A DNA stretch of 64,000 bases from an uncultured Acidobacteriota bacterium (GTDB lineage: Bacteria > Acidobacteriota > JAQAZP01). A program made the translations under genes and the position numbers. The stretch spans positions 1,376,001 through 1,440,000 of the forward strand of contig CAWIIB010000001.1 in assembly GCA_963836075.1 (NCBI GenBank), given 5' to 3'. This document shows, piece after piece, positions 17,164 through 57,708 of the stretch. The notes beneath the pieces are model-generated. The model did no database searches, was not told where the DNA came from, and saw only the letters and a list, made by a program, of their open reading frames with translations. The number at the start of each line of letters is the position of its first letter. Position 1 is the stretch's first letter.

Positions 17164-19203
17164 ATGAACAGCAGAGAAAGAAAGAGCCGCAGAAGCCGGC
17201 AGTGGATGGCCGCGCTCATTCTGTTCGCCATGTCCGTCCTGGTCTGGCCCGCGGCTGAGACCCGGGCCGCCGGCACGCTCACCCCGATAAACTCGGAGTA
17301 CCCGCCGGTGCAGATCAAGGACCACCAGGTGAACATCACCATCAACAATGGCTTTGCCATGACCGAGGTGGTCCAGACCTTCTTCAACCCCAATTCCACC
17401 GACGTGGAGGCCCTCTATTCCTTCCCGCTGCCCAAAAGCGCCAGCCTCTCCGAAGTAACCATCACCTCGGGGGAAACCGAGATCAACGGCGAGGTTCTGC
17501 CGAAGCAGGAGGCACGGGATGCGTACGAGAACGAGAAGCAGAGCGGCAACGACGCCGGCCTGGCCGAGAAGAACGAGTTCTATAGTTTCGAGTTTTCGGT
17601 CTACCCGGTACGCGCGGGACAGGAGACGGTGATCCGCTTCCTCTACTACCAGCCGCTGGAGATCGAGATGGGCGTGGGCCGCTACCTCTACCCGCTGCAG
17701 GAAGGCGGCACTGACGAAGTTGCCGAAGCCTTCTGGAGCCGCAACGAAGTGGTGGAAGAACTGTTCAGCATCAACGCGGAAGTCAAGTCGGCCGCCCCCC
17801 TCGACTCGGTGCGGGTCCCCGGTTTCAACGGCGCCGCCGTGGTGGAGAAAAAGGCCGAGGAGCACTACCTGGTATCGCTCCAGGAACAGCATGCCACCCT
17901 CGATCGCGACTTCGTCCTCTACTACCGCCTGGTGCCTGACCTGCCGGGCCGGGTGGAACTAATCCCCTACCGCGCGTCCCACGACGGCCCGGGCACCTTC
18001 ATGATGGTGGTCACCCCAGGCATGGACCTCCAGCCGATCACCGGCGGCGCGGACTATCTGTTCGTCCTCGACACCTCGGGCAGCATGAACTCCAAGATCG
18101 GCACCCTGGCCAACGCGGTGAGCCAGTCCCTGGGTAAGCTCCGTGGGGACGACCGCTTCCGCGTGGTCACCTTCAGCAACAGCGCCAAAGACCTCACCGG
18201 CGGCTGGATCAACGCCACCGAGCAGAACGTGCTCCACTATGCCCGAGAGGTGGAGTCGCTGCAGTCCGATGGCGGCACCGACATCTACCGCGGCCTGAAG
18301 CTGGCGCTTGGCGACCTGGAAGCGGATCGGGCCACCAGCCTGATCCTGGTCACCGACGGGGTGACCAACTGCGGGGTGGTGGACCCAAAAAAATTCCACC
18401 AGCTGATGAAGCAGTACGACATCCGGGTCTTCGGCTTCCTGCTGGGCAACAGCGGCAACTGGCCGCTGATGCGCACCATCTGTGACGCCAGCGGTGGATT
18501 CTACGCCGGTGTGTCCAACGCGGACGACATGGTGGGCCAGATCATGCTGGCCCGGAGCAAGATCACCTGCGAGTGCCTGCACGACGCCTCGCTGAAAATC
18601 TCCGGGGTGAAGGTCTTTGACGCTTCGGACGAGATGCTGGGCAAGGTCTACCGTGGCCAGCAGCTGGTGATTTTCGGCCGCTACGACCAGGGCGGTGAGG
18701 CCCAGGTGACCTTCAAGGGCCGGATGACCAGCGGGGAGAAGACCTACCGTACAAGCTTCAGTTTCCCCGACATCGACGAGAGCTGCCCCGAGGTGGAGCG
18801 GCTCTACGCCCTCAACCGCGTGGAACATCTGGAAGACATGGTCAACGCCGGACTCATTGCCGGTGACGAAGCCGATTCGGCCATCCGCGACCTGGGCCTG
18901 GCCTACCAGCTGGTGACGGACCAGACATCCATGGTGGTGCTCAGCGACGAGACCTTCGAGAAACTGGGCATCGACCGGCAGAACCGCCGACGGATCGAAC
19001 GCGAACGCGCGGCCCGGGCCCAACGCGCCGGCCAGACCCGCTCGCACCGAGTGGACACCAGTTCCCCGATGTTCAAGCGCAACTCCCCTTCACTGGGCGG
19101 CGGCGCCTTTGACCCGCTTTCCGCGGCAGCGGCCCTGGGGGCGGCACTGCTCTCTGTGGCCGGCTGGCGCCGTTCCCGCCGCAACAACGTAAAGAGAGAC
19201 TGA
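17164..19203 (+). CDS. Secreted VIT + vWA domain protein with GlyGly-CTERM-like sorting tail
   Basis: GGAGG RBS; signal peptide; VIT (QTFFNP..EALYSFPLP); MIDAS DTSGSM, TDG; tail SLGGGAF + hydrophobic helix + RRSRR. Confidence 0.9.
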   Translation: MNSRERKSRRSRQWMAALILFAMSVLVWPAAETRAAGTLTPINSEYPPVQIKDHQVNITINNGFAMTEVVQTFFNPNSTDVEALYSFPLPKSASLSEVTITSGETEINGEVLPKQEARDAYENEKQSGNDAGLAEKNEFYSFEFSVYPVRAGQETVIRFLYYQPLEIEMGVGRYLYPLQEGGTDEVAEAFWSRNEVVEELFSINAEVKSAAPLDSVRVPGFNGAAVVEKKAEEHYLVSLQEQHATLDRDFVLYYRLVPDLPGRVELIPYRASHDGPGTFMMVVTPGMDLQPITGGADYLFVLDTSGSMNSKIGTLANAVSQSLGKLRGDDRFRVVTFSNSAKDLTGGWINATEQNVLHYAREVESLQSDGGTDIYRGLKLALGDLEADRATSLILVTDGVTNCGVVDPKKFHQLMKQYDIRVFGFLLGNSGNWPLMRTICDASGGFYAGVSNADDMVGQIMLARSKITCECLHDASLKISGVKVFDASDEMLGKVYRGQQLVIFGRYDQGGEAQVTFKGRMTSGEKTYRTSFSFPDIDESCPEVERLYALNRVEHLEDMVNAGLIAGDEADSAIRDLGLAYQLVTDQTSMVVLSDETFEKLGIDRQNRRRIERERAARAQRAGQTRSHRVDTSSPMFKRNSPSLGGGAFDPLSAAAALGAALLSVAGWRRSRRNNVKRD

Positions 19204-19205
19204 GC

Positions 19206-19851
19206 ATGGACACAGGCTCGAACAGCCTGTCCACTGAGGGAGGGCGGCGCCTGCCCGGCGCCGCTCTCCTGCTGGCCGGTCTGGCCCTGGCCGTCCACCT
19301 GGTGCCCGGCGCGGACGAACTGCTGGAGTACCGGCGCGAGGCGATCATCGCCGGGCAGGTGTGGCGTATCCTCTCCGGCCACTGGGCCCACTTCACTCTG
19401 AACCACCTCTCGTGGGACCTGCTGGCCTTTCTGGTTCTCGGGTCGGCTTGTGAGCAGTTCAGCCGCCGCCGGTTCGTGCTGGCCGTATTCGGCTCGGCCA
19501 TCACGGTGGCCGCCGTGTCCTGGTTCCTGCTGCCCGGGATGACCGCCTACCGCGGCCTCTCCGGTATCGGCTCCGCCCTCTTCGGGCTGCTCACCGTCCA
19601 GTTGATCAGGAACGCGATCCGGCAAGGGTACGCCCCGGGCGCTCCTCTTCCCCGCTTCCCTGCTGCTCCTCTTCCTGGGCAAATCCGGCTATGAACTCTG
19701 GGCCGGGGCCAGCGTGTTTGTCAGCGACTACGGCGCGGCCGTGGACCCGGTGCCCCTGGCCCACCTGGCCGGTGCGGCGGTGGGCTGCGCCGCTGGCCTG
19801 GTCCGCGGGCCGACCACTCCCGCGAGAGACCTTACGGCAGCACCCCGGTGA
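19206..19851 (+). CDS. rrtA: Rhombosortase (rhomboid-family intramembrane protease), one +1 frameshift near 19628
   Basis: GQVWRILSGHWAH, NHL, catalytic YRGLSG; after the shift ...VPLAHLAG (catalytic His) to TGA 19849-19851. Confidence 0.8.
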
Positions 19852-21539
19852 CCACCTCGGCGTCGGTACCGTTGTCGCCTGCCGGCGGGTAAGGCGGCTG
19901 GTTGGTACGGGGCCGGAGTCACGTCCTCATACACCAGGGTAAAAATGTTGTCCCCGGCCAGCGGCGGCAACTGGGGCAGGTTCACCGGAAAGACCCTGGC
20001 GAAGGTGGCCCCGGCCCCGATATTGGTGTAGCCGAAGCGCCAGTTGGGATAGTGCGCGCCCCCGGCGAGGGTCACGTCGATCCCCGCGGCCACCCGGCGG
20101 GTCTGCCCGGAGAACGCATTGATCAGGCTCATGGTCATGGTGGTGCTGAAGGGCAGGGTCCCGGAAGAGGGTACGCAGGTCAGGCTCCCGTCGATGGTGT
20201 TGAACAGCGCGCACAATTCCTTGCCGACGCCCGGTACGTATGCCCTGAAATACAGCTTGTCCCCGGCAACGGTGAGGAACTCGGGTGTCGACGACCCGCT
20301 GCCGCCGTTGAGGTCAGCCACCATGGCCGTCCCCCCGGCCGTGCCGTCACTGCTCCACAGTTCGGTGCCGTTGATCCCGTCGTTCACCCGGAAGTAGACC
20401 TTTTCCCCCAGCGCGGTCATGTGCTCGGGGTAAGAGCCATCGCCCGAGATGATATCTGCCACCACCACGGTCCCGGCATACGTCCCGTCACTCTTCATCA
20501 GCTCGTTGCCATAGACGGAATCGGTGGCCCGGAAATAGAGCGTGTTGCCCACGGCCACCAGGTACCAGGGAAGCGAGCTCTGCGGTCCGACCCGGATGTC
20601 GCGCAGCTGGTAGGTGCCGCCGTAGGTGCCGTCGCTGCGCCAGAGTTCCGTACCATCTTCGTTGTCCGCACCCTGAAAGTAGAGGATCCCGTTCATCGCG
20701 GTGATTTCGATGGGGCCCAGTGAGCCGGGAAGTTCGCTGAACACCTCCCAGGTGCCGGGGCCGGTGCCGTCGCTGCGCCAGAGCATGCCGTTGGCCTGGT
20801 AATAGAGTATTCCGTCCATCACTTCCGGTTCGGTAAATGACGCGCCGGCGAGACCGGGATTGCTGTCCAGCACCATGTCAGTGCCCGCCGCGGTGCCGTC
20901 GCTGCGCCACAGCTCACGGCCGCCGGTGAGGTGGTAGGCGACAAAGAAACAGTAGCCGTCCATGGCCAGCAGGTATTCGGGCGAGGAGGATCCGGAATCG
21001 GGATAGCAGTCCTTGACCATCACCGTGCCGGCGTCGGTGCCGTCACTGACCCACAGTTCCCTGCCGTGAATGCCGCTCCCGTCATCGGCGGCGAAGAAGA
21101 GTCGGTTGCCCACGGCGGTGAGCCCGTTGGGCCGGTTGGTGTAGAGCCAGGCATCGGAAACCATCTCCTCGCTGCCCATCGTCCCGTCACTCTTCCACAA
21201 CTGGTGATCGAAGCCGTAGGACATGATGAAGTAGAGGGTGGAGCCCACGGCAGTTAGATGGTAGGGCCCGGTGAGCCCGGAAAGCGCCGTGATCGGGTAT
21301 GTCCCGGCGACCGTGCCGTCGCTGCGGAACAGCTGCTGACTGAAGCTGACCGGATCGGAAGCCACGAAATAGAGCTGATCCCCCATGGCCAACAGTTGCT
21401 CGGGGTTGGAGTCGAGGCTCCCCGACCAGATGTCGATCACCTGGACCGGATCGGCCAGGCTGGACGGTGCGGTCGTGGCCAGGGCAATGACCAGCAGGAT
21501 GATGGTGAGAGCAGTCATGCGTGTGCTGTTCTTCATCAC
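19832..21539 (-). CDS. Secreted ELWxxDGT-repeat beta-propeller protein with novel C-terminal domain; +1 frameshift near 19904
   Basis: Signal peptide; repeated ELW(R/V/S)SDGT motifs; removing one base gives ...PAPYNQPPYPPAGDNGTDAEVVTGVLP* (TAA 19832-19834), matching the end of 55927..57708. Confidence 0.85.
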
Positions 21540-51248: not shown

Positions 51249-51935
51249 ATGGAGAGGCAGCAGAAAGTCCTGGTGATCGAGGACTACCCGCCGGTGCTCA
51301 AGTCGATCACCATGGGCCTGAGCGAGGAGGGCTTCGCGGTGACCCCGGCAACCAATGGCGCCGACGGGCTGGAACTGGCCCTCGAGGGCGACTTCGACCT
51401 GATCGTTCTCGACCTGATGCTGCCCCGGATCGACGGCCTGACCATCCTCCAACGACTGCGCGACGAGGGCCGAACGGTCCACGTGCTGATTCTCACCGCC
51501 CGGGATACCCTCGATGACCGGGTCCACGGCCTGGACCTCGGGGCCGACGACTACCTGGTCAAACCGTTCGAGTTCGAAGAGCTGCTGGCCAGGGTCCGGG
51601 CGTTGCTCCGGCGGAAGAACGGCGACAAGACAGCGGTGATCAGGGTGGCCGACCTGGAGATCAACACGTCCGCCCGAACCGCCAAACGGGCGGGCCGGCA
51701 GATCGACCTCACCGCCCGGGAATATACCCTGCTGGAGTTTCTCGCCACGCGCACCGGCCGGGTGGTTACCCGGACCCAGGTCTGGGAGCAGCTCTACGAC
51801 TTTGCCGAAGAGATCAACAGCAACGTGGTGGACGTCTACATCGGCTACCTGCGCAAGAAGCTGGAACAGCACGGCGGCCCCCGCCTGATCCACACCCGCC
51901 GCGGCATGGGGTATGTCCTGGAGGTAAACCCCTGA
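51249..51935 (+). CDS. OmpR-family response regulator
   Basis: VIED, LDLMLP, LTARD, GADDYLVKPF, LTAREY, NVVDVYI..LR.K, RGMGY. Confidence 0.95.
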   Translation: MERQQKVLVIEDYPPVLKSITMGLSEEGFAVTPATNGADGLELALEGDFDLIVLDLMLPRIDGLTILQRLRDEGRTVHVLILTARDTLDDRVHGLDLGADDYLVKPFEFEELLARVRALLRRKNGDKTAVIRVADLEINTSARTAKRAGRQIDLTAREYTLLEFLATRTGRVVTRTQVWEQLYDFAEEINSNVVDVYIGYLRKKLEQHGGPRLIHTRRGMGYVLEVNP

Positions 51936-53407
51936 TGCGGTCCCTGCGCACAACCCTGCTCTTCGGCACCTCGGCGGGAATGGTGATGGTTCTGCTGGTG
52001 CTGGGCCTGCTGTTCCACATGCTGGAGCGAAAAAACCTGGTGGAACTGTTTGACGCCGCTCTGCTCGACGAAGCACGGATGCTGGCCTCCACCATCGAGT
52101 TCGAGAAAGGCGGGGTGGTGCTCGACTTTGCCGAACTGAAACTCCTGAGCTACAGGGAATCCGCCCGCCCCGGCTATCTCCAGGTCTGGCTGCCGGAGAA
52201 TCGCGTGATCTACCGCTCTCCCTCCCTGGGCGCAAACGATCTTCCGAAACCCTCCGGCCCACTAAATTCCGAAGGCTTCCTCTGGGTGAATCTTCCCGAC
52301 GGTAATAACGGCCGGTCCGTGGGCCTGACCTTCAAACCGCGGCAGGAAAAGGAGGAGGATGAGGAGGACGGAGGCGAAGGGGGTGAAGCCGGTAGTGACG
52401 AGGACCGTGAGATTCCCCTGGTGACCCTGGTTCTGGCCCGCCACACCGAGCCGGTAGACCTGACACTCTCCCGCATGCTGACCCGGCTGGCCCTGCTGGG
52501 GCTGCTGACCATCCTGGTCTCCATCGCTGTTCTTTCCCTGGTGATCCACCGGGCGCTGCTGCCGCTCAACCAGCTGGCCGGCAGGATCGGCATGCTGGAC
52601 GAGAAGAACCTTTCCAGCGGCCTTGCCGGCAGGCCCGGCCCGCAGGAAGTCCGGCCGATCATCAACCAGCTGAATCATCTGCTCGACCGCCTGGCCAGGG
52701 CCTTCCAACGCGAACGCTCCTTCAGCGCCGACATCGCCCATGAACTGCGCACGCCCCTCTCCGGCCTCCGTTCGATTATCGACGTGGTGCGTTCAAAACC
52801 GAGGCCGGCGGAAGAATACCGCGAGGGCCTGGACGAGTGCCTGGAGATCACGCTGCAGATGCAGGACATGGTCTCCAGACTGCTCTACCAGGGCCGGCTG
52901 GAGTCCGGCCAAGTGGACCTACAGCCAGAACCGCTGCAGGTCAACCAGCTGCTGCGCACCGCCTGGGCCGCTCTGGAGGACCGGGCCCGTCAGAGGGGTC
53001 TGGAGGTGCAGTGGGCGCTGGATCGCAATGACGCCCTGATCACCGACCTCTCGCTGTTCAGCCTGGTGATCCAGAACATCGTGGGAAACGCCGTAGAGCA
53101 CGCCGACGAGAACGGCCGGGTGAAGATCGAGACTTCGTTCAACAACATCCAGCCGTCGATTCGGGTCCGCAACAGCGGAAGCCAGGTCTCCCGGGGATCG
53201 GCAAACTTCGTGTTCGACCGGTTCTGGCGCGGGGACAAATCCAGGAACTCGGTACGGGGCCACAGCGGACTGGGCCTGACCCTGGTCAAGCGCGCGGTGA
53301 CCATGCTGGGTGGTGAGGTGGACGTGGAGTCCGAGGTGGGCGGCGACTTCTTGATCACGGTCGCCATTCCAGCCACGGGACCGGCCGCAACCGATCCCGT
53401 GGACTGA
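51935..53407 (+). CDS. Sensor histidine kinase (QseC/CusS-like) with HAMP domain
   Basis: Two TM, acidic periplasmic insert, AHELRTPL, N..NA, FDRFWR, GLGL. Confidence 0.93.
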   Translation: MRSLRTTLLFGTSAGMVMVLLVLGLLFHMLERKNLVELFDAALLDEARMLASTIEFEKGGVVLDFAELKLLSYRESARPGYLQVWLPENRVIYRSPSLGANDLPKPSGPLNSEGFLWVNLPDGNNGRSVGLTFKPRQEKEEDEEDGGEGGEAGSDEDREIPLVTLVLARHTEPVDLTLSRMLTRLALLGLLTILVSIAVLSLVIHRALLPLNQLAGRIGMLDEKNLSSGLAGRPGPQEVRPIINQLNHLLDRLARAFQRERSFSADIAHELRTPLSGLRSIIDVVRSKPRPAEEYREGLDECLEITLQMQDMVSRLLYQGRLESGQVDLQPEPLQVNQLLRTAWAALEDRARQRGLEVQWALDRNDALITDLSLFSLVIQNIVGNAVEHADENGRVKIETSFNNIQPSIRVRNSGSQVSRGSANFVFDRFWRGDKSRNSVRGHSGLGLTLVKRAVTMLGGEVDVESEVGGDFLITVAIPATGPAATDPVD

Positions 53408-53427
53408 GAACCTGCCGGAACGGGCTC
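53372..53427 (+). repeat. Direct repeat copy 1 (overlaps kinase 3' end)
   Basis: GCCACGGGACCGGCCGCAACCGATCCCGTGGACTGAGAACCTGCCGGAACGGGCTC. Confidence 0.85.
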
Positions 53428-53804
53428 CACACACAATGCGGGTCCGCAATCAGAATTCTCCTTGGCCTCGCGCTCGCGTTGCTGCTCGCACCAGGCTGTG
53501 CCCGCTACGTCCCCGCACCCATCTCGCCCGGGCAATCGCTCTCGGTCTGCTGATCGATGAGGAATTCAAATTGAGCAGGATCGAGAGGGACGCGCCGGGA
53601 TCGCCCCCCACAGCGGAGACCCGCTGAGGAGACGAAGATGTTATTTCGTCGATTCTCACTGTCCTCTCATGTTTAAAAGACTACGCTTTCTGTTGAGCGG
53701 TTCGGCATCGGCGTGTTTTGTATCAACCGAACCGGCGATCATTCCCGGTATTGAATCTCGGAACTTTAATATGGATTCGCAATACGGTGCAGGGAGATGA
53801 CCGA

Positions 53805-55170
53805 ATGAGCCTGAAAGCCGGAAGCGCGTTTTCCGGTCCGACTCCCGTCCCGCGGTGGGCCCGGCGGTCTCGCCCTGCGGCCGACGGCGACCGGGAGGGA
53901 CGCCACCGGTTCGACGTTCCCCTGCTCGTCCTGCTGCTCTGCGCCATCGTCTCCATCCGTCTGGTCTCGCTCGGCCTCTATCCGCTGATCGACAAGTCCG
54001 AATCGCGCTACGCCGAGATCGCCCGGGAGATGGAGTCGAGCGGAGACCTGGTTGTGCCCTGGTTGATGGGTGAACCCTTCATGGCCAAGCCCCCGCTCTC
54101 CTTCTGGCTCTCCGCGGCGAGCATGTCCATTTTCGGCCACACCGATTTCGCCGTCCGGCTGCCATCGTTCATCCTCCTGCTACTCACCGCGGGCCTGCTC
54201 TTTGCCGTCGCCGTCGATCTGTTCGACCTCAGGACGGCCCTCCTGGCGGTGGTAATCCTCTGTTCGATGCCGCTCCATTTCGTCCTTTCCGGAGTAGTCT
54301 CGCCGTAGATATCCTCGAGAGCGGAGTGCCTGGGGGTCTTCGACGGCGACTGGGGCTCGGTCTGCTGCGGGCGGTAAGCCTTGACTACTATGCCCTGGAC
54401 GTCTACAGGCGACGTCTGGTATCACGGCGCACTCCCCTGGTTCTACGACCACGATGCTGGTGCTCAGCTTCGCGGCGCCCTGGATTCCTGCTGATGGAAG
54501 GCAGCAATCCCGGGTGTAATAATACTCAATTACTCTTCTCCACCAGCCGCTGTGGCCAAGCCTTCCCCTGGACGTTTTTCTCGCACCTCTGGCCGAGGTT
54601 CCGGGCGTTCAAGACATTCCGTGGGGACCCGCAGGGGTTTCTCTTGCTCTGGGCCCTCACTCCGATGGTCTTCTTCACCTTTTCCTGGAGCACTGTGGTG
54701 ACCTACGTCTATCCGGGGCTTCCCGCGCTGGCCCTGCTCATCGCCGGGGCGCTTCGGGCGGTGCCGAAAGGGGAACCGGCATGCTGAAACGGTCGCACAT
54801 CACGTTCGCGCTCTGGTTTCCCTTCCTGTTCATCGGGCTGGTCTTCTTTTTTTACGACAGGATCGATGGCTATTCGCAAAAAAAAATGGTCACGGAATGC
54901 CAGGCATGGGCCGATTCCGAACAGCGTCCCATCCAGTTCGATGGCTGCTTGAAGTATTCCGGGGCCTTCGATGCCGGCAGCGGCTCGACCAGAACCGGCG
55001 GGGTTAAAATGAACCGGGGGACGAGCCGGGCTGACGGTTCCGGGTCCCTGGTGGTGGTGGAAAAGGGTTCCCCACAATATCTCGGTTACGCCGGCGACGG
55101 CCATTTCCGGTTGATCGCCGAGAAAGACACGTATGCCATTTTCAAGAACCTGACCGTGGTCTCCCGTTGA
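53805..55170 (+). pseudogene. Degraded ArnT-like (GT83) lipid A/glycolipid glycosyltransferase
   Basis: LIDKSESRYAEIAREM, FMAKPPL, AVRLPS; TAG 54306; scrambled middle; later FPWT, VTYVYP.LPALALL; ORF 54781..55170 resembles the last TM plus periplasmic domain. Confidence 0.7.
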
Positions 55171-55255
55171 AACGAAAATGATCCACCATATATCCCAAGG
55201 ACATCTCCCAGCCCTTACCCACTCAGCCAAGCGCTCATGAGCAAAGAGAAATGCA

Positions 55256-55846
55256 ATGAAATTTTCTTCGCCGTCCACTTGGCCGGGCATTCTGAAACAT
55301 GGCACGGCACCCTGGCTTCCGGTCGTTTGCTCACTCCTGGCCGCGGTCCCGTTCACTGTACCGGCCCAGGCGCAAAGCGCCATGGAACAGGCGGGTGACA
55401 TCCTCCAGGTGCTGATCCCATCGGCGGCCTACACCACCACCTTCATCAAAAAGGATCCTGAGGGAAGGAAGCAGTTCTACTACTCCTTCTTCTGCACCTT
55501 CACCATCACCCAAAGCTTGAAATACAGCATAAACAGCCAGCGCCCGGAAGGGAACGGCGGGCATTCCTTCCCCTCCGGACACACCTCGGCCGCCTTCCAG
55601 GGAGCGACATTCCTTCAACGGAGATACGGCTGGGGCTACGGCCTGCCGGCTTACATCGGCGCGGCCTTCGTTGGTTACAGCCGGGTGGAGGGCGAGTTGG
55701 ACAAGCACTATCCCGGTGATGTGCTGGCTGGTGCGGCCCTGGGAATCATCAGCGGCTACTATTTCACCGAATCACCAAAGAGCTACTCCAAATCACCGAT
55801 CATCGACCAGGGCCGCTACGGTGTGAGCTTCAAACTGAAGTGGTGA
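55256..55846 (+). CDS. PAP2-family phosphatase (LpxE-like)
   Basis: LKYSINSQRP, SFPSGH, YSRV...KHY.GDV.AG. Confidence 0.88.
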   Translation: MKFSSPSTWPGILKHGTAPWLPVVCSLLAAVPFTVPAQAQSAMEQAGDILQVLIPSAAYTTTFIKKDPEGRKQFYYSFFCTFTITQSLKYSINSQRPEGNGGHSFPSGHTSAAFQGATFLQRRYGWGYGLPAYIGAAFVGYSRVEGELDKHYPGDVLAGAALGIISGYYFTESPKSYSKSPIIDQGRYGVSFKLKW

Positions 55847-55926: not shown

Positions 55927-57708
55927 TCAGGGAGCGATACCCACCACCGTACAGTTGCCGGAAGCGGTGTCCCCAGCCGGCGGATAGGGCGGCTGGTTGT
56001 AGGGCGACGGCGTCACGTCCTCCACCACCAGGGTGAAGGTGTTGGTGCCGATCACCGTTCCGATGGCCGGGATGGTGGTGTTCCAGCCGGTGATATAACT
56101 GCCGTCCGCGTCGATATTGGTGTATCCCGCCCGCCAGTTCCCCACGCTGGAACCGTTGGCCAGGGCCACGTTGATCCGTCCCGCCATCCGCCGGCCCAGC
56201 CCGGAATACTCGTTGTTGATCGTCACGGTAAATGATGCGGTGAACGGCACCGTGCCCGATCCCGGCAGACAGGTGAGATCCGTCGACACCGTGGATGCCG
56301 AGACATAGCCCAGCGTCCCGTCCGCATTGACGTTCTGACCGATGATGTCCAGGTGCCCGGCGCGGTCATCGGACCAGGCCAGGATGGCGTACCCTTCGCT
56401 GCTCATGGCGGCATTGAGCCGGCCCTTGCCACTGGGCAGGCTGCCGGCCTCGACGATGTCACCGGTCCAGACGAAGTCGCCGTTGCCGTCCACCCGGGTG
56501 GCCTTGATCACGTCGTTGCCATAGCTGGGCGACTCGATCCAGAAGGCCATGGCGCCGTCACCGTCCTGCAGCGTGTTGATGAAGGTGCGGGTGGGGACGC
56601 CCACGGGAACCAGCTCCTTGCCCGAGGTGCCCCAGAGACGGAGGCCGAGACTGGAGAGCTTCTGCCCGTACACCCCGTGTTGCGACTGGCTGGAGTTCAG
56701 CTCGGTCCAGAAGACATACATGTTCCCGGTGGCCGGGTCAAAGGAGGCGTCGGGGGAAACCCGCAGCCGCGTGGCATTGGTGGAAACGCTGACCCCGTTG
56801 TGTGCGAACTGCTCGCTGCCGTCGGAGAGGATGCGCTGGGCGTAACACTGCAGCACGCTGGTGCCATACCAGGAGAAGACCGCGCCGCCGCTGCCGTCGG
56901 TGGTGAAGGTGGGGTAGTTGCCGAACTGCAGCGAATCACCGTCGAAGACGATGACGTGCGGCCCGGGGGTGGTCCACATGGCAACGCCTTCGGCTGAGAT
57001 TTTCTGGGCCCAGAGGTGCTTGGGATCCCAGAACATCGGCCCCCACTTGACCCAGGAGACGATCACATGGCCGTAATCGGAACCGTGGATGTCGGAGATG
57101 GAGAAATTGGCGGCGCCGGTGTCGGAGAGGACCACGCCGGTCCCCCACTGGGGCACTCCGTCGTTAGTCAGTTTTTGCAGTTTGGTAGTTGACGCTTCGG
57201 TCCACCCCACCACCACGTTGCCGTCAGAGGTGCCGGCGATCCGGGGGGAATAGACCTCTTCGCCGCTGGTCAGCTGTATGCCGTTGGCCCCCCAGAGCAT
57301 GGCGCCGTCAGGGTCCACCATCACAGCCGTAATCCTCGTGGCGCCGAAACGGTCGTCACGGAAAGCCAGCACCGCGTAGCCGTAATTGTCCACGTCGAGG
57401 CCGTAGTCCTCGGTGGAGCTGAACGAGCGGTCGGCGATAAGCATGCCGTTGTGGGCCCACTGCTCGTCACCGGCCGCATCGAGGCGCTGGAGGTAGACGT
57501 CGTAGCCGCCGGCGGCATTGTCGAACCAGCTGATGTAGCAACCGCCGTCGGAGGTGGGTGCGATCTTCGGCTGGGCCTGGTCCGCCGTGCGGTCAGCAAT
57601 GGCCAGGTTCACCGCCGGATCCGTGGACCAGGCCGCGTGGACACTGGGTGCCCAGACAAGGAGGGCAATGATGATCAGCGAGACGAGGACGGGGGCGAAA
57701 CGTTTCAT
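55927..57708 (-). CDS. Secreted beta-propeller-like protein with the same novel C-terminal domain
   Basis: Signal peptide (VHA-AW); repeats DGGC/DGSGGA..W, YxQR/K..G..W; ends ...EDVTPSPYNQPPYPPAGDTASGNCTVVGIAP. Confidence 0.85.
   Translation of the reverse strand: MKRFAPVLVSLIIIALLVWAPSVHAAWSTDPAVNLAIADRTADQAQPKIAPTSDGGCYISWFDNAAGGYDVYLQRLDAAGDEQWAHNGMLIADRSFSSTEDYGLDVDNYGYAVLAFRDDRFGATRITAVMVDPDGAMLWGANGIQLTSGEEVYSPRIAGTSDGNVVVGWTEASTTKLQKLTNDGVPQWGTGVVLSDTGAANFSISDIHGSDYGHVIVSWVKWGPMFWDPKHLWAQKISAEGVAMWTTPGPHVIVFDGDSLQFGNYPTFTTDGSGGAVFSWYGTSVLQCYAQRILSDGSEQFAHNGVSVSTNATRLRVSPDASFDPATGNMYVFWTELNSSQSQHGVYGQKLSSLGLRLWGTSGKELVPVGVPTRTFINTLQDGDGAMAFWIESPSYGNDVIKATRVDGNGDFVWTGDIVEAGSLPSGKGRLNAAMSSEGYAILAWSDDRAGHLDIIGQNVNADGTLGYVSASTVSTDLTCLPGSGTVPFTASFTVTINNEYSGLGRRMAGRINVALANGSSVGNWRAGYTNIDADGSYITGWNTTIPAIGTVIGTNTFTLVVEDVTPSPYNQPPYPPAGDTASGNCTVVGIAP

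Follow-up and report, generated by a model that had tools for sequence, protein, structure and literature searches.

A lineage-specific C-terminal domain on exported proteins of an uncultured Acidobacteriota bacterium and its possible role as an anchoring or docking tag

Two window proteins with unrelated passengers and a shared end

The window, i.e. the whole stretch of 64,000 nucleotides analysed here (C1:1376001-1440000), belongs to the genome of an uncultured Acidobacteriota bacterium (6.23 Mb, 10 contigs, 94.7% complete) and encodes two proteins that end in the same 121-residue domain. Gene A (55927..57708, minus strand) codes for a 593-residue protein with a signal-peptide-like N-terminus, MKRFAPVLVSLIIIALLVWAPSVHA/AW, a beta-propeller passenger without a catalogued family, and copy A of the C-terminal domain (CTD; 55930..56292, minus strand), which makes up its last 121 residues and is followed by the stop codon at 55927-55929. 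Gene B, in its frame-corrected form (19832..21539, minus strand), codes for a signal peptide, ELWxxDGT repeats (TIGR04534, E = 7e-107, in eight stretches) and copy B of the CTD (19832..20198, minus strand), which is the tail of this repeat protein. As described in the initial annotation, both N-termini read as Sec signal peptides and the passengers are unrelated, one being an ELWxxDGT repeat protein and the other a propeller without a Pfam or NCBIfam family. The data establish that the domain is a modular tag, specific to this lineage, at the C-terminus of exported proteins of this bacterium; what we say below of its function and of a partner is a proposal.

When aligned without gaps, the two copies are identical at 58 of 121 positions, a match far beyond chance. 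This is exactly the count given in the initial annotation, and it is reproduced once a single extra base at 19904 (minus strand) is skipped, as copy B is in frame only without it. The open reading frame (ORF) 19728..21539 as written leaves the frame after '...FTLVYEDVTPAPY' and continues into a 70-residue unrelated Arg/Ala-rich tail. Skipping the base at 19904 (the second C in 'ccgtaCcaac') restores 'NQPPYPPAGD...GVLP' and the true stop codon at 19832-19834; the span 19832-20198 thus comprises 367 bases, that is 121 codons, a stop codon and one base, and the earlier reading had passed silently through the frameshift. A tblastn search of the genome with copy A recovered the first 106 residues of copy B at E = 1e-23. 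Since contigs from the public runs X1, X3 and X5, each of a different study, lack exactly this base, we read it as an indel that probably arose in the assembly; apart from this base, the X1 contig agrees fully with the window across 272 bases. The same contig also omits one base at window position 19626, which points to a further single-base indel in the assembly. At most 41% of the sampled words of the stretch were present in any one public run, and no orthologue of the ELWxxDGT protein was found in two sister genomes at E up to 1e-50. The genome contains 35 partial matches to the tag, most of which are pieces of frame-shifted genes, and with such single-base indels many genes will appear divided in an annotation that relies on ORFs.

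A large family of terminal domains

Compared with the whole genome by tblastn, copy A gave well over 200 significant matches. A hidden Markov model (HMM) of the family was made from 134 full-length copies and run against the stop-to-stop ORFs of the genome, which resulted in 224 domain matches in 223 ORFs; copy A scores 177 bits against the family profile. Of 189 near-full-length copies, 187 terminate no more than eight residues from the stop codon, 158 of them exactly at it; of the two that lie internally, one forms the first half of a tandem pair. Together, the ORFs of the 187 terminal copies cover 344,886 bases (5.5% of the genome). The 165 full copies have a median pairwise identity of 49%, with 0.06% of pairs being more than 90% identical, and this low identity indicates that the family is old and diversified and no recent repeat.

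The tag is present in three of 401 sampled genomes of the phylum, namely that of the window and two others from its genus; in the GTDB species set, these three make up their entire order and class. Per genome, at least 150, 136-139 and 112 matches were counted. A pattern scan of 185,579 species genomes gave 134 stretches, 128 of which were confirmed, and the best 80 all lie within two metagenome-assembled genomes. In a library of 1.84 billion protein representatives (50% identity), 502 proteins match the tag at E up to 0.001. Among the best 150 of these 502, the tag lies at most eight residues from the end in 145 and is present in two copies in nine, and 81 of the 88 long ones look signal-peptide-bearing. 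These counts bear out what the initial annotation had expected of a sorting tag: many copies per genome (189 near-full here, at least 112 and at least 136 matches in the sister genomes) and C-terminal placement (187 of 189 copies here, 145 of the best 150 representatives).

Signal peptides of the carriers were judged by a crude hydropathy test of their N-termini. By this test, 133 of the 187 carriers have a signal-peptide-like N-terminus compared with 179 of 588 control ORFs, and among carriers of at least 450 residues the count is 122 of 144; the short carrier ORFs are mostly truncated through frameshifts. A lipobox-like motif was found in one of the 133 signal-peptide-like carriers, and a hydrophobic C-terminal segment in none of the 187, the mean Kyte-Doolittle hydropathy over 19 residues within the last 45 residues having a maximum of 1.31 and a median of 0.64. 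The absence of a C-terminal transmembrane helix, noted initially for the two window proteins, hence extends to the carriers as a whole. Because the carriers have neither a lipobox, with that one exception, nor a C-terminal hydrophobic helix, the tag is their sole candidate anchor.

Pfam was run on 77 of the 187 carriers, those within the 20 densest 20-kb stretches. Their passengers are diverse and include FG-GAP types, right-handed beta-helices with Chlam_PMP repeats, subtilases (S8), Peptidase_C25 with its propeptide, PAD_porph, M6, LVIVD, BNR, SBBP, FGE-sulfatase and an MtrC-like cytochrome domain, among others; 19 of the 77 have no Pfam family. Peptidase types on carriers include S8, C25, M6 and M28. 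Single-linkage BLAST clustering merged 104 of 174 passengers through shared repeats and is unusable as a count of families. The Pfam results on the 77 carriers and the N-termini of the long carriers agree with the diverse, signal-peptide-bearing passengers that the initial annotation had foreseen. The tag is preceded by three to five small or proline residues, after which it starts abruptly; in 96 of 163 copies, the residue at position -1 is S, D or G, and upstream there is no conserved motif.

Across the 165 full copies, conservation reaches at least 85% in 27 columns (T1, P10, G13, P16, F17, N27, R34, G47, W53, R54, G56, W70, P75, G82, N84, F86, D92, V93, T94, P95, P97, N99, Q100, P101, P102, G107 and P121), and nine of these fall in the loop 92-107. 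The blocks singled out in the initial annotation from two copies, LTCxPxSGTxPF, RRxA, NWRxGYTN, DVTPxPYNQPPYPPxGD and the terminal P, are the most conserved columns of the family. Thr94 is 99% conserved and is followed by a proline; the family end is G-x-x-P, with Pro as the last residue in 94% of copies. Cys8 is found in 82% and Cys114 in 74% of the 165 copies, and the two tend to occur together (both in 115, neither in 22, Cys8 alone in 21, Cys114 alone in seven; Fisher p = 4e-10). This co-variation suggests a Cys8-Cys114 disulfide joining the first and last strands, and such a predicted disulfide would in turn imply folding outside the cytoplasm.

An AlphaFold2 model, computed from 21 aligned sequences, shows an all-beta domain of eight strands (mean predicted local distance difference test score, pLDDT, 96.8; predicted template modelling score, pTM, 0.85). 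The 16 residues 93-108 have no regular secondary structure in the model, and pLDDT is 95-96 over residues 91-110. The predicted fold is a generic immunoglobulin (Ig)-like sandwich: the Foldseek matches (best E 6e-5) are generic Ig/FN3/CARDB/PKD/macroglobulin-type sandwiches, and the best VIA-align matches are RbmA (Z 12.8), the Ig-like domain of AlkC (12.3), CARDB 3idu (10.9) and PKD 4xed (10.0), with the Wzt carbohydrate-binding domain at Z 9.4. Structures of type IX secretion system (T9SS) CTDs are absent among the Foldseek and VIA-align matches listed, which carries no evidential weight. In the ESM Atlas there was no match of 0.9 or above, and the nearest clusters, named CARDB, score 0.81-0.86 and are leads only.

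Searches for a known family were negative for the tag. Neither Pfam (models up to 2025; E up to 1) nor NCBIfam (2026), run on the tag and the two window proteins, gave a match over it, and Pfam placed no family over the tag in the 77 carriers, with PF18962/PF13860 in 0 of 77 at E up to 1e-4. The family profile found no match among PDB sequences (best E only 0.81), and full-text literature searches, which did not extend to subscription journals and bioRxiv supplements, turned up no description of the domain. Together with a negative comparison to T9SS-tail profiles, this means that no described family matches the domain, which the initial annotation had not recognised as a T9SS CTD, PEP-CTERM, GlyGly-CTERM, dockerin or SLH. 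We also found neither a genome limited to two copies, nor frequent internal or N-terminal placement, nor a set of cytoplasmic carriers.

Tag swapping is seen in the passenger of gene A, a propeller for which more than 1500 homologues were found, ending in various tails. Among 120 homologues listed, 90 have a recognisable junction, 'QNVNxDGxLG', after which 33 end in a 17-26 residue 'FxDGFESGD...' tail only, 20 in T9SS/FlgD_ig-type tails, 15 in dockerin-like tails as judged by eye (four with a precomputed PF00404 match), seven in the 121-residue tag, seven in a Cys-rich tail of about 115 residues, six in a 97-residue 'PAC...DPCP' tail and two in other tails. Paralogous C25 peptidases in this genome end in either the 121-residue tag or an FG-GAP propeller module. 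The Cys-rich tail is homologous to the tag (hhalign probability 96%, E = 4e-9, 107 columns) and lacks its 11-residue insert PAPYNQPPYPP. As this sister tail folds without the insert, the fold does not depend on it, and still about 165 paralogues keep the insert almost unchanged. The Cys-rich tail is uncommon: a word-limited search of 5.8 billion clusters gave 10 proteins. It also ends six proteins here, each at most two residues from the stop codon (profile E 3.5e-30 to 4.4e-15; hand-converted coordinates C1:1708557-1710005, C1:1909419-1911143, C9:2392206-2394383, C1:997674-999677, C9:2390488-2392167 and C9:1048599-1050833). Many of the unrelated alternative tails of the propeller family end in Pro or Cys-Pro as well ('TTSCP', 'DPCP', 'SSVP', 'GPCP'), and a terminal proline may be a general shield of exported proteins against carboxypeptidases.

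Another C-terminal module has also expanded in this genome, namely an FG-GAP-type propeller, about 330 residues long, in which 'GPGPG..FGPHVRGW..YGVNVAAGDxDGDG' is the repeat. About 110 BLAST paralogues that differ in their N-terminal parts have it as their end (e.g. C1:1235443-1237668, C1:1829952-1831709 and C9:1552522-1553874). At most two of them carry the 121-residue tag, and the family is about twofold enriched near tag genes (36 of 112 paralogues compared with 736 of 4506 genes).

Anchoring, export and other possible roles

We tentatively favour, at somewhat less than even confidence, the reading that the 121-residue domain is a modular C-terminal tag on about 190 or more Sec-exported proteins that stably docks or anchors its carriers. 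Once exported by Sec, the tag would form a compact Ig-like sandwich of eight strands outside the cytoplasm, would be stapled by the putative Cys8-Cys114 disulfide and would be retained on the mature protein. The nearly invariant, proline- and aromatic-rich loop D-V-T-P-A-P-Y-N-Q-P-P-Y-P-P-x-G-D, together with neighbouring conserved W, R, N and Y residues, would dock all carriers onto a single shared partner of the envelope or matrix, with a glycan, an S-layer or a scaffold protein being candidate kinds. As an outcome, exoproteins such as the peptidases and the beta-helix and FG-GAP adhesin-like proteins would be kept cell-associated, similar to anchoring by dockerins, SLH domains or CBM-type modules. 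We prefer such a module to a transient export signal because the co-varying Cys pair and the conserved last proline suggest a retained domain and look like adaptations for persistence outside the cell, because tandem copies occur (nine of the 150 representatives), which is common for binding modules, because an insert dispensable for the fold is invariant, as expected of a single shared binding face, and because dockerin-like modules hold the same position in relatives. The high pLDDT of the model, also over the loop region, fits a stable domain, and the copy number, the terminal position, the exported carriers and the tag swapping speak for this reading as well. The presence of 27 columns with at least 85% conservation, nine of them in the loop, despite a median identity of 49% suggests a shared binding surface, and the near structures that we counted toward a likeness to binding modules include the matrix or glycan binders RbmA, CARDB and the Wzt carbohydrate-binding domain.

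Several observations weigh against stable anchoring. No partner was found: enrichment within 2.5 kb of tag genes brought up nothing beyond the FG-GAP propeller family and families of passenger paralogues, and a crude windowed repeat-scaffold scan returned FG-GAP, CHAT-like and other proteins and nothing cohesin-like. A binding module need not sit at the C-terminus almost without exception, and such a position, with the alignment running up to the stop codon, suits a signal that is read from a free C-terminus no less well. The set of cargo proteins is similar to what T9SS exports in other phyla (C25 with propeptide, PAD_porph, S8, Chlam_PMP/beta-helix), and the structural matches, being to generic Ig/FN3/CARDB/PKD folds, are without functional weight.

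It is possible, if doubtful, that the tag is instead an export and attachment signal for a novel outer-membrane machinery, T9SS-like in its working and unrelated to T9SS. The machinery would recognise the folded tag in the periplasm and move it through the outer membrane, after which the tag might be cut off and a covalent anchor take its place. The strict position at the extreme C-terminus with its conserved terminal residue speaks for this, as do the numbers of cargo proteins, which range from more than 100 to about 200 in each of the class's three genomes, and the carriers without a membrane anchor and, but for one, without a lipobox. Homologues of the same passenger in other lineages bear PF18962/PF13860 tails, the cargo types (Peptidase_C25 with Propeptide_C25, PAD_porph, S8, beta-helix/PMP) are those exported by T9SS elsewhere, and the small residues before the tag, among them the S, D or G at position -1, are compatible with a processing site. 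If so, the domain would be the address signal of a novel outer-membrane system in one class-level uncultured Acidobacteriota lineage, with about 200 cargo proteins or 5.5% of the genome, a proposition that we regard as rather unlikely. Against it stand the co-varying Cys pair and terminal Pro, which suggest a long-lived domain and not a discarded signal, the tandem tags, which put one copy off the free C-terminus, and the absence of any accessory gene enriched beside tag genes.

The searches for machinery bear on the same question. In the 94.7%-complete genome, no match was obtained for SprA (TIGR04189), GldM (TIGR03517) or Slam (PF04575), for all of which the control genomes were silent too, nor for PorV (NF033710), whose control was weak, in Bacteroides thetaiotaomicron. 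Exosortase and T9SS tails (TIGR04183) were unmatched in the genome as well, and with controls mostly silent across the machinery searches these are weak negatives. Three secretin matches are present in the genome, two within long ORFs; type II secretion is therefore available and could serve without a new system. The initial annotation had implied an uncharacterised machinery elsewhere in the genome, for which the T9SS core, exosortase, Slam, neighbourhood and repeat-scaffold searches gave no candidate. Its lineage-specific beta-sandwich is upheld by the distribution and by the AlphaFold2 and Foldseek results, which predict an Ig-like sandwich, whereas the role in export or surface attachment that it assigned to this sandwich is a proposal.

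An HMM of T9SS/FlgD_ig tails gave one weak near-terminal match (E = 2e-6) and one internal match (E = 2e-3) in the genome; the former is in an 892-residue protein (C9:3010893-3013568), in which the FlgD_ig/T9SS-type domain spans residues 800-874 and ends 18 residues before the stop. Peptidase_C25 (gingipain/PorU family) has 25 matches in about 21 genes, several with Propeptide_C25, and these genes are mostly cargo themselves, with at least nine being tagged and others ending in the FG-GAP propeller. PorU, the T9SS sortase, belongs to this family; the one C25 gene compared with the NCBIfam PorU model scores 70.7 bits against a cut-off of 420, and hence none stands out as a sortase. The C25 gene C1:1027244-1030054, the one examined that bears neither module, was set aside, as it lies within a probable peptide-maturation operon (C1:1026745-1032735, minus strand) that is apparently unrelated to the tag. 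This operon encodes a radical SAM/SPASM protein with PqqD, a P-loop protein, the C25 peptidase and an S24-like peptidase; the catalytic domain of its C25 peptidase is at the extreme C-terminus, and the protein has neither the tag nor an FG-GAP propeller.

The surroundings of genes A and B contain nothing that points to a partner of the tag. Gene A is flanked on one side by an EamA transporter. On the other side (51935-55846, plus strand) lie genes for a histidine kinase, an ArnT/PMT_2-like GT-C glycosyltransferase and a PAP2 phosphatase with weak LpxE likeness, a cluster that looks like a lipid A modification cluster; its GT-C gene (53718-54787) is split into the ORFs 53718-54308 and 54326-54787, probably through another indel. 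Convergent with gene B are a gene for a VIT and vWA protein (17164-19203, plus strand) with a GlyGly-CTERM-like tail ('GGGAFDP', a hydrophobic stretch and 'RRSRR') and, directly after it, a rhombosortase gene (19206-19694, plus strand; TIGR03902, 88.6 bits compared with a cut-off of 84). These two are a substrate-protease pair of a known sorting system, unrelated to the tag.

We consider it improbable that the tag is a C-terminal pro-domain or a folding and secretion aid, similar to PPC, which aids passage or holds enzymes inactive and is removed outside the cell. Many carriers are indeed peptidases (S8, C25, M6, M28), the tag is a predicted C-terminal beta-sandwich similar in size to PPC-type domains, and a short run of small residues marks the junction. 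Most carriers, however, are non-enzymes in no need of a pro-domain (FG-GAP, beta-helix, LVIVD, BNR, ELWxxDGT), and PPC (PF04151) is present in two of the 77 carriers upstream of the tag (residues 683-749 and 318-392) and over the tag in none, making the tag an additional element. The loop, invariant across unrelated passengers, would also indicate one common external partner and no interaction specific to each passenger.

A role as a modification carrier, in which Thr94 (D-V-T-P-A-P) would be O-glycosylated by a PMT/TMTC/TMEM260-like GT-C transferase and the glycan would mediate attachment, is very improbable. The near-complete conservation of Thr94, with Pro next to it, fits such a role, and the eukaryotic TMEM260 and TMTC enzymes O-mannosylate Ig-like domains. 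No link between transferases and the tag emerged in this analysis, however, and the GT-C gene beside gene A is ArnT-like and stands in an apparent lipid A modification arrangement. Just as hard to credit is a generic Ig-like spacer without common function, spread by domain shuffling and conserved for fold stability alone, since, even though the predicted fold is generic and the loop is modelled at such high confidence that its conservation could be structural, generic Ig-like spacers occupy any position, often in arrays, whereas the tag is terminal in 187 of 189 copies, and its insert is kept nearly invariant although the sister tail folds without it.

Comparison with known tags and anchoring modules

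Shared C-terminal tags have repeatedly led to new sorting systems, as for sortase, exosortase, rhombosortase, T9SS and myxosortase. Here, an uncatalogued folded tag marks about one gene in 25 of a deep-branching sediment lineage that appears to be without T9SS core genes, exosortase and Slam, all of these being weak negatives. Under any of the readings above, the tag defines the cell-surface and extracellular proteome of this lineage, and many of the tagged proteins are peptidases or adhesin-like, which bear on how organic matter is turned over in sediments. The invariant PYNQPPYPP loop within one conserved domain provides a handle for the discovery of a partner, and the family profile would label several hundred 'hypothetical' clusters, given the 502 representatives at 50% identity.

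With the T9SS type A CTD (PF18962 Por_Secre_tail, TIGR04183) and FlgD_ig (PF13860) tails, the tag shares a predicted Ig-like sandwich fold, the extreme C-terminal position, Sec-exported and diverse passengers and tens to hundreds of carriers per genome. It is also found at the same junction of the same propeller passenger and on similar cargo (C25, PAD, S8, beta-helix). Unlike these tails, the tag has no sequence or profile match to them (hhalign probability 0.1%, E = 0.54, 10 columns), whereas the T9SS-type tails of passenger homologues, used as a positive control, match PF13860 in 10 of 10 and PF18962 in nine of 10 cases. It has 121 residues, eight predicted strands and a 16-residue invariant loop compared with about 75-90 residues, as well as a co-varying Cys pair, and SprA, PorV and GldM were not found alongside it, with controls weak or silent.

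PPC (PF04151) is likewise a C-terminal beta-sandwich extension of secreted proteins, and it is removed after secretion. The tag differs from it in that it is not confined to peptidases and has no sequence match to PPC. To CARDB (PF07705) and PKD (PF00801/PF18911) the likeness is at the fold level and does not set them apart from other Ig-like folds of similar Z: 3idu aligns over 98 residues with a root-mean-square deviation (rmsd) of 2.4 (Z 10.9), and 4xed over 92 residues with an rmsd of 2.1 (Z 10.0). Both families are usually internal or arrayed, and the tag has no Pfam match to them at E up to 1.

The systems PEP-CTERM/exosortase, GlyGly-CTERM/rhombosortase, LPXTG/sortase and MYXO-CTERM/myxosortase resemble the tag in being many-to-one C-terminal tags of restricted lineages. 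In contrast to these signals, the tag is a folded 121-residue domain without a hydrophobic helix or a basic tail; no exosortase was found, and the rhombosortase of the window sits beside its own GlyGly-CTERM-like substrate. The concept of lineage-restricted many-to-one C-terminal sorting tags is that of PMC1569441, PMC3237569 and PMC11980579.

The type I dockerin (PF00404), which is bound by cohesin, is a small calcium-binding helical duplicate, whereas the tag is predicted to be all-beta, has no Pfam match and yielded no cohesin-like partner in the crude repeat-scaffold scan. In their arrangement the two are nevertheless alike: dockerins, too, are mostly C-terminal modules on very many secreted proteins of one organism, their interaction residues are conserved among paralogues, and on homologues of the gene A passenger they hold the same position as the 121-residue tag.

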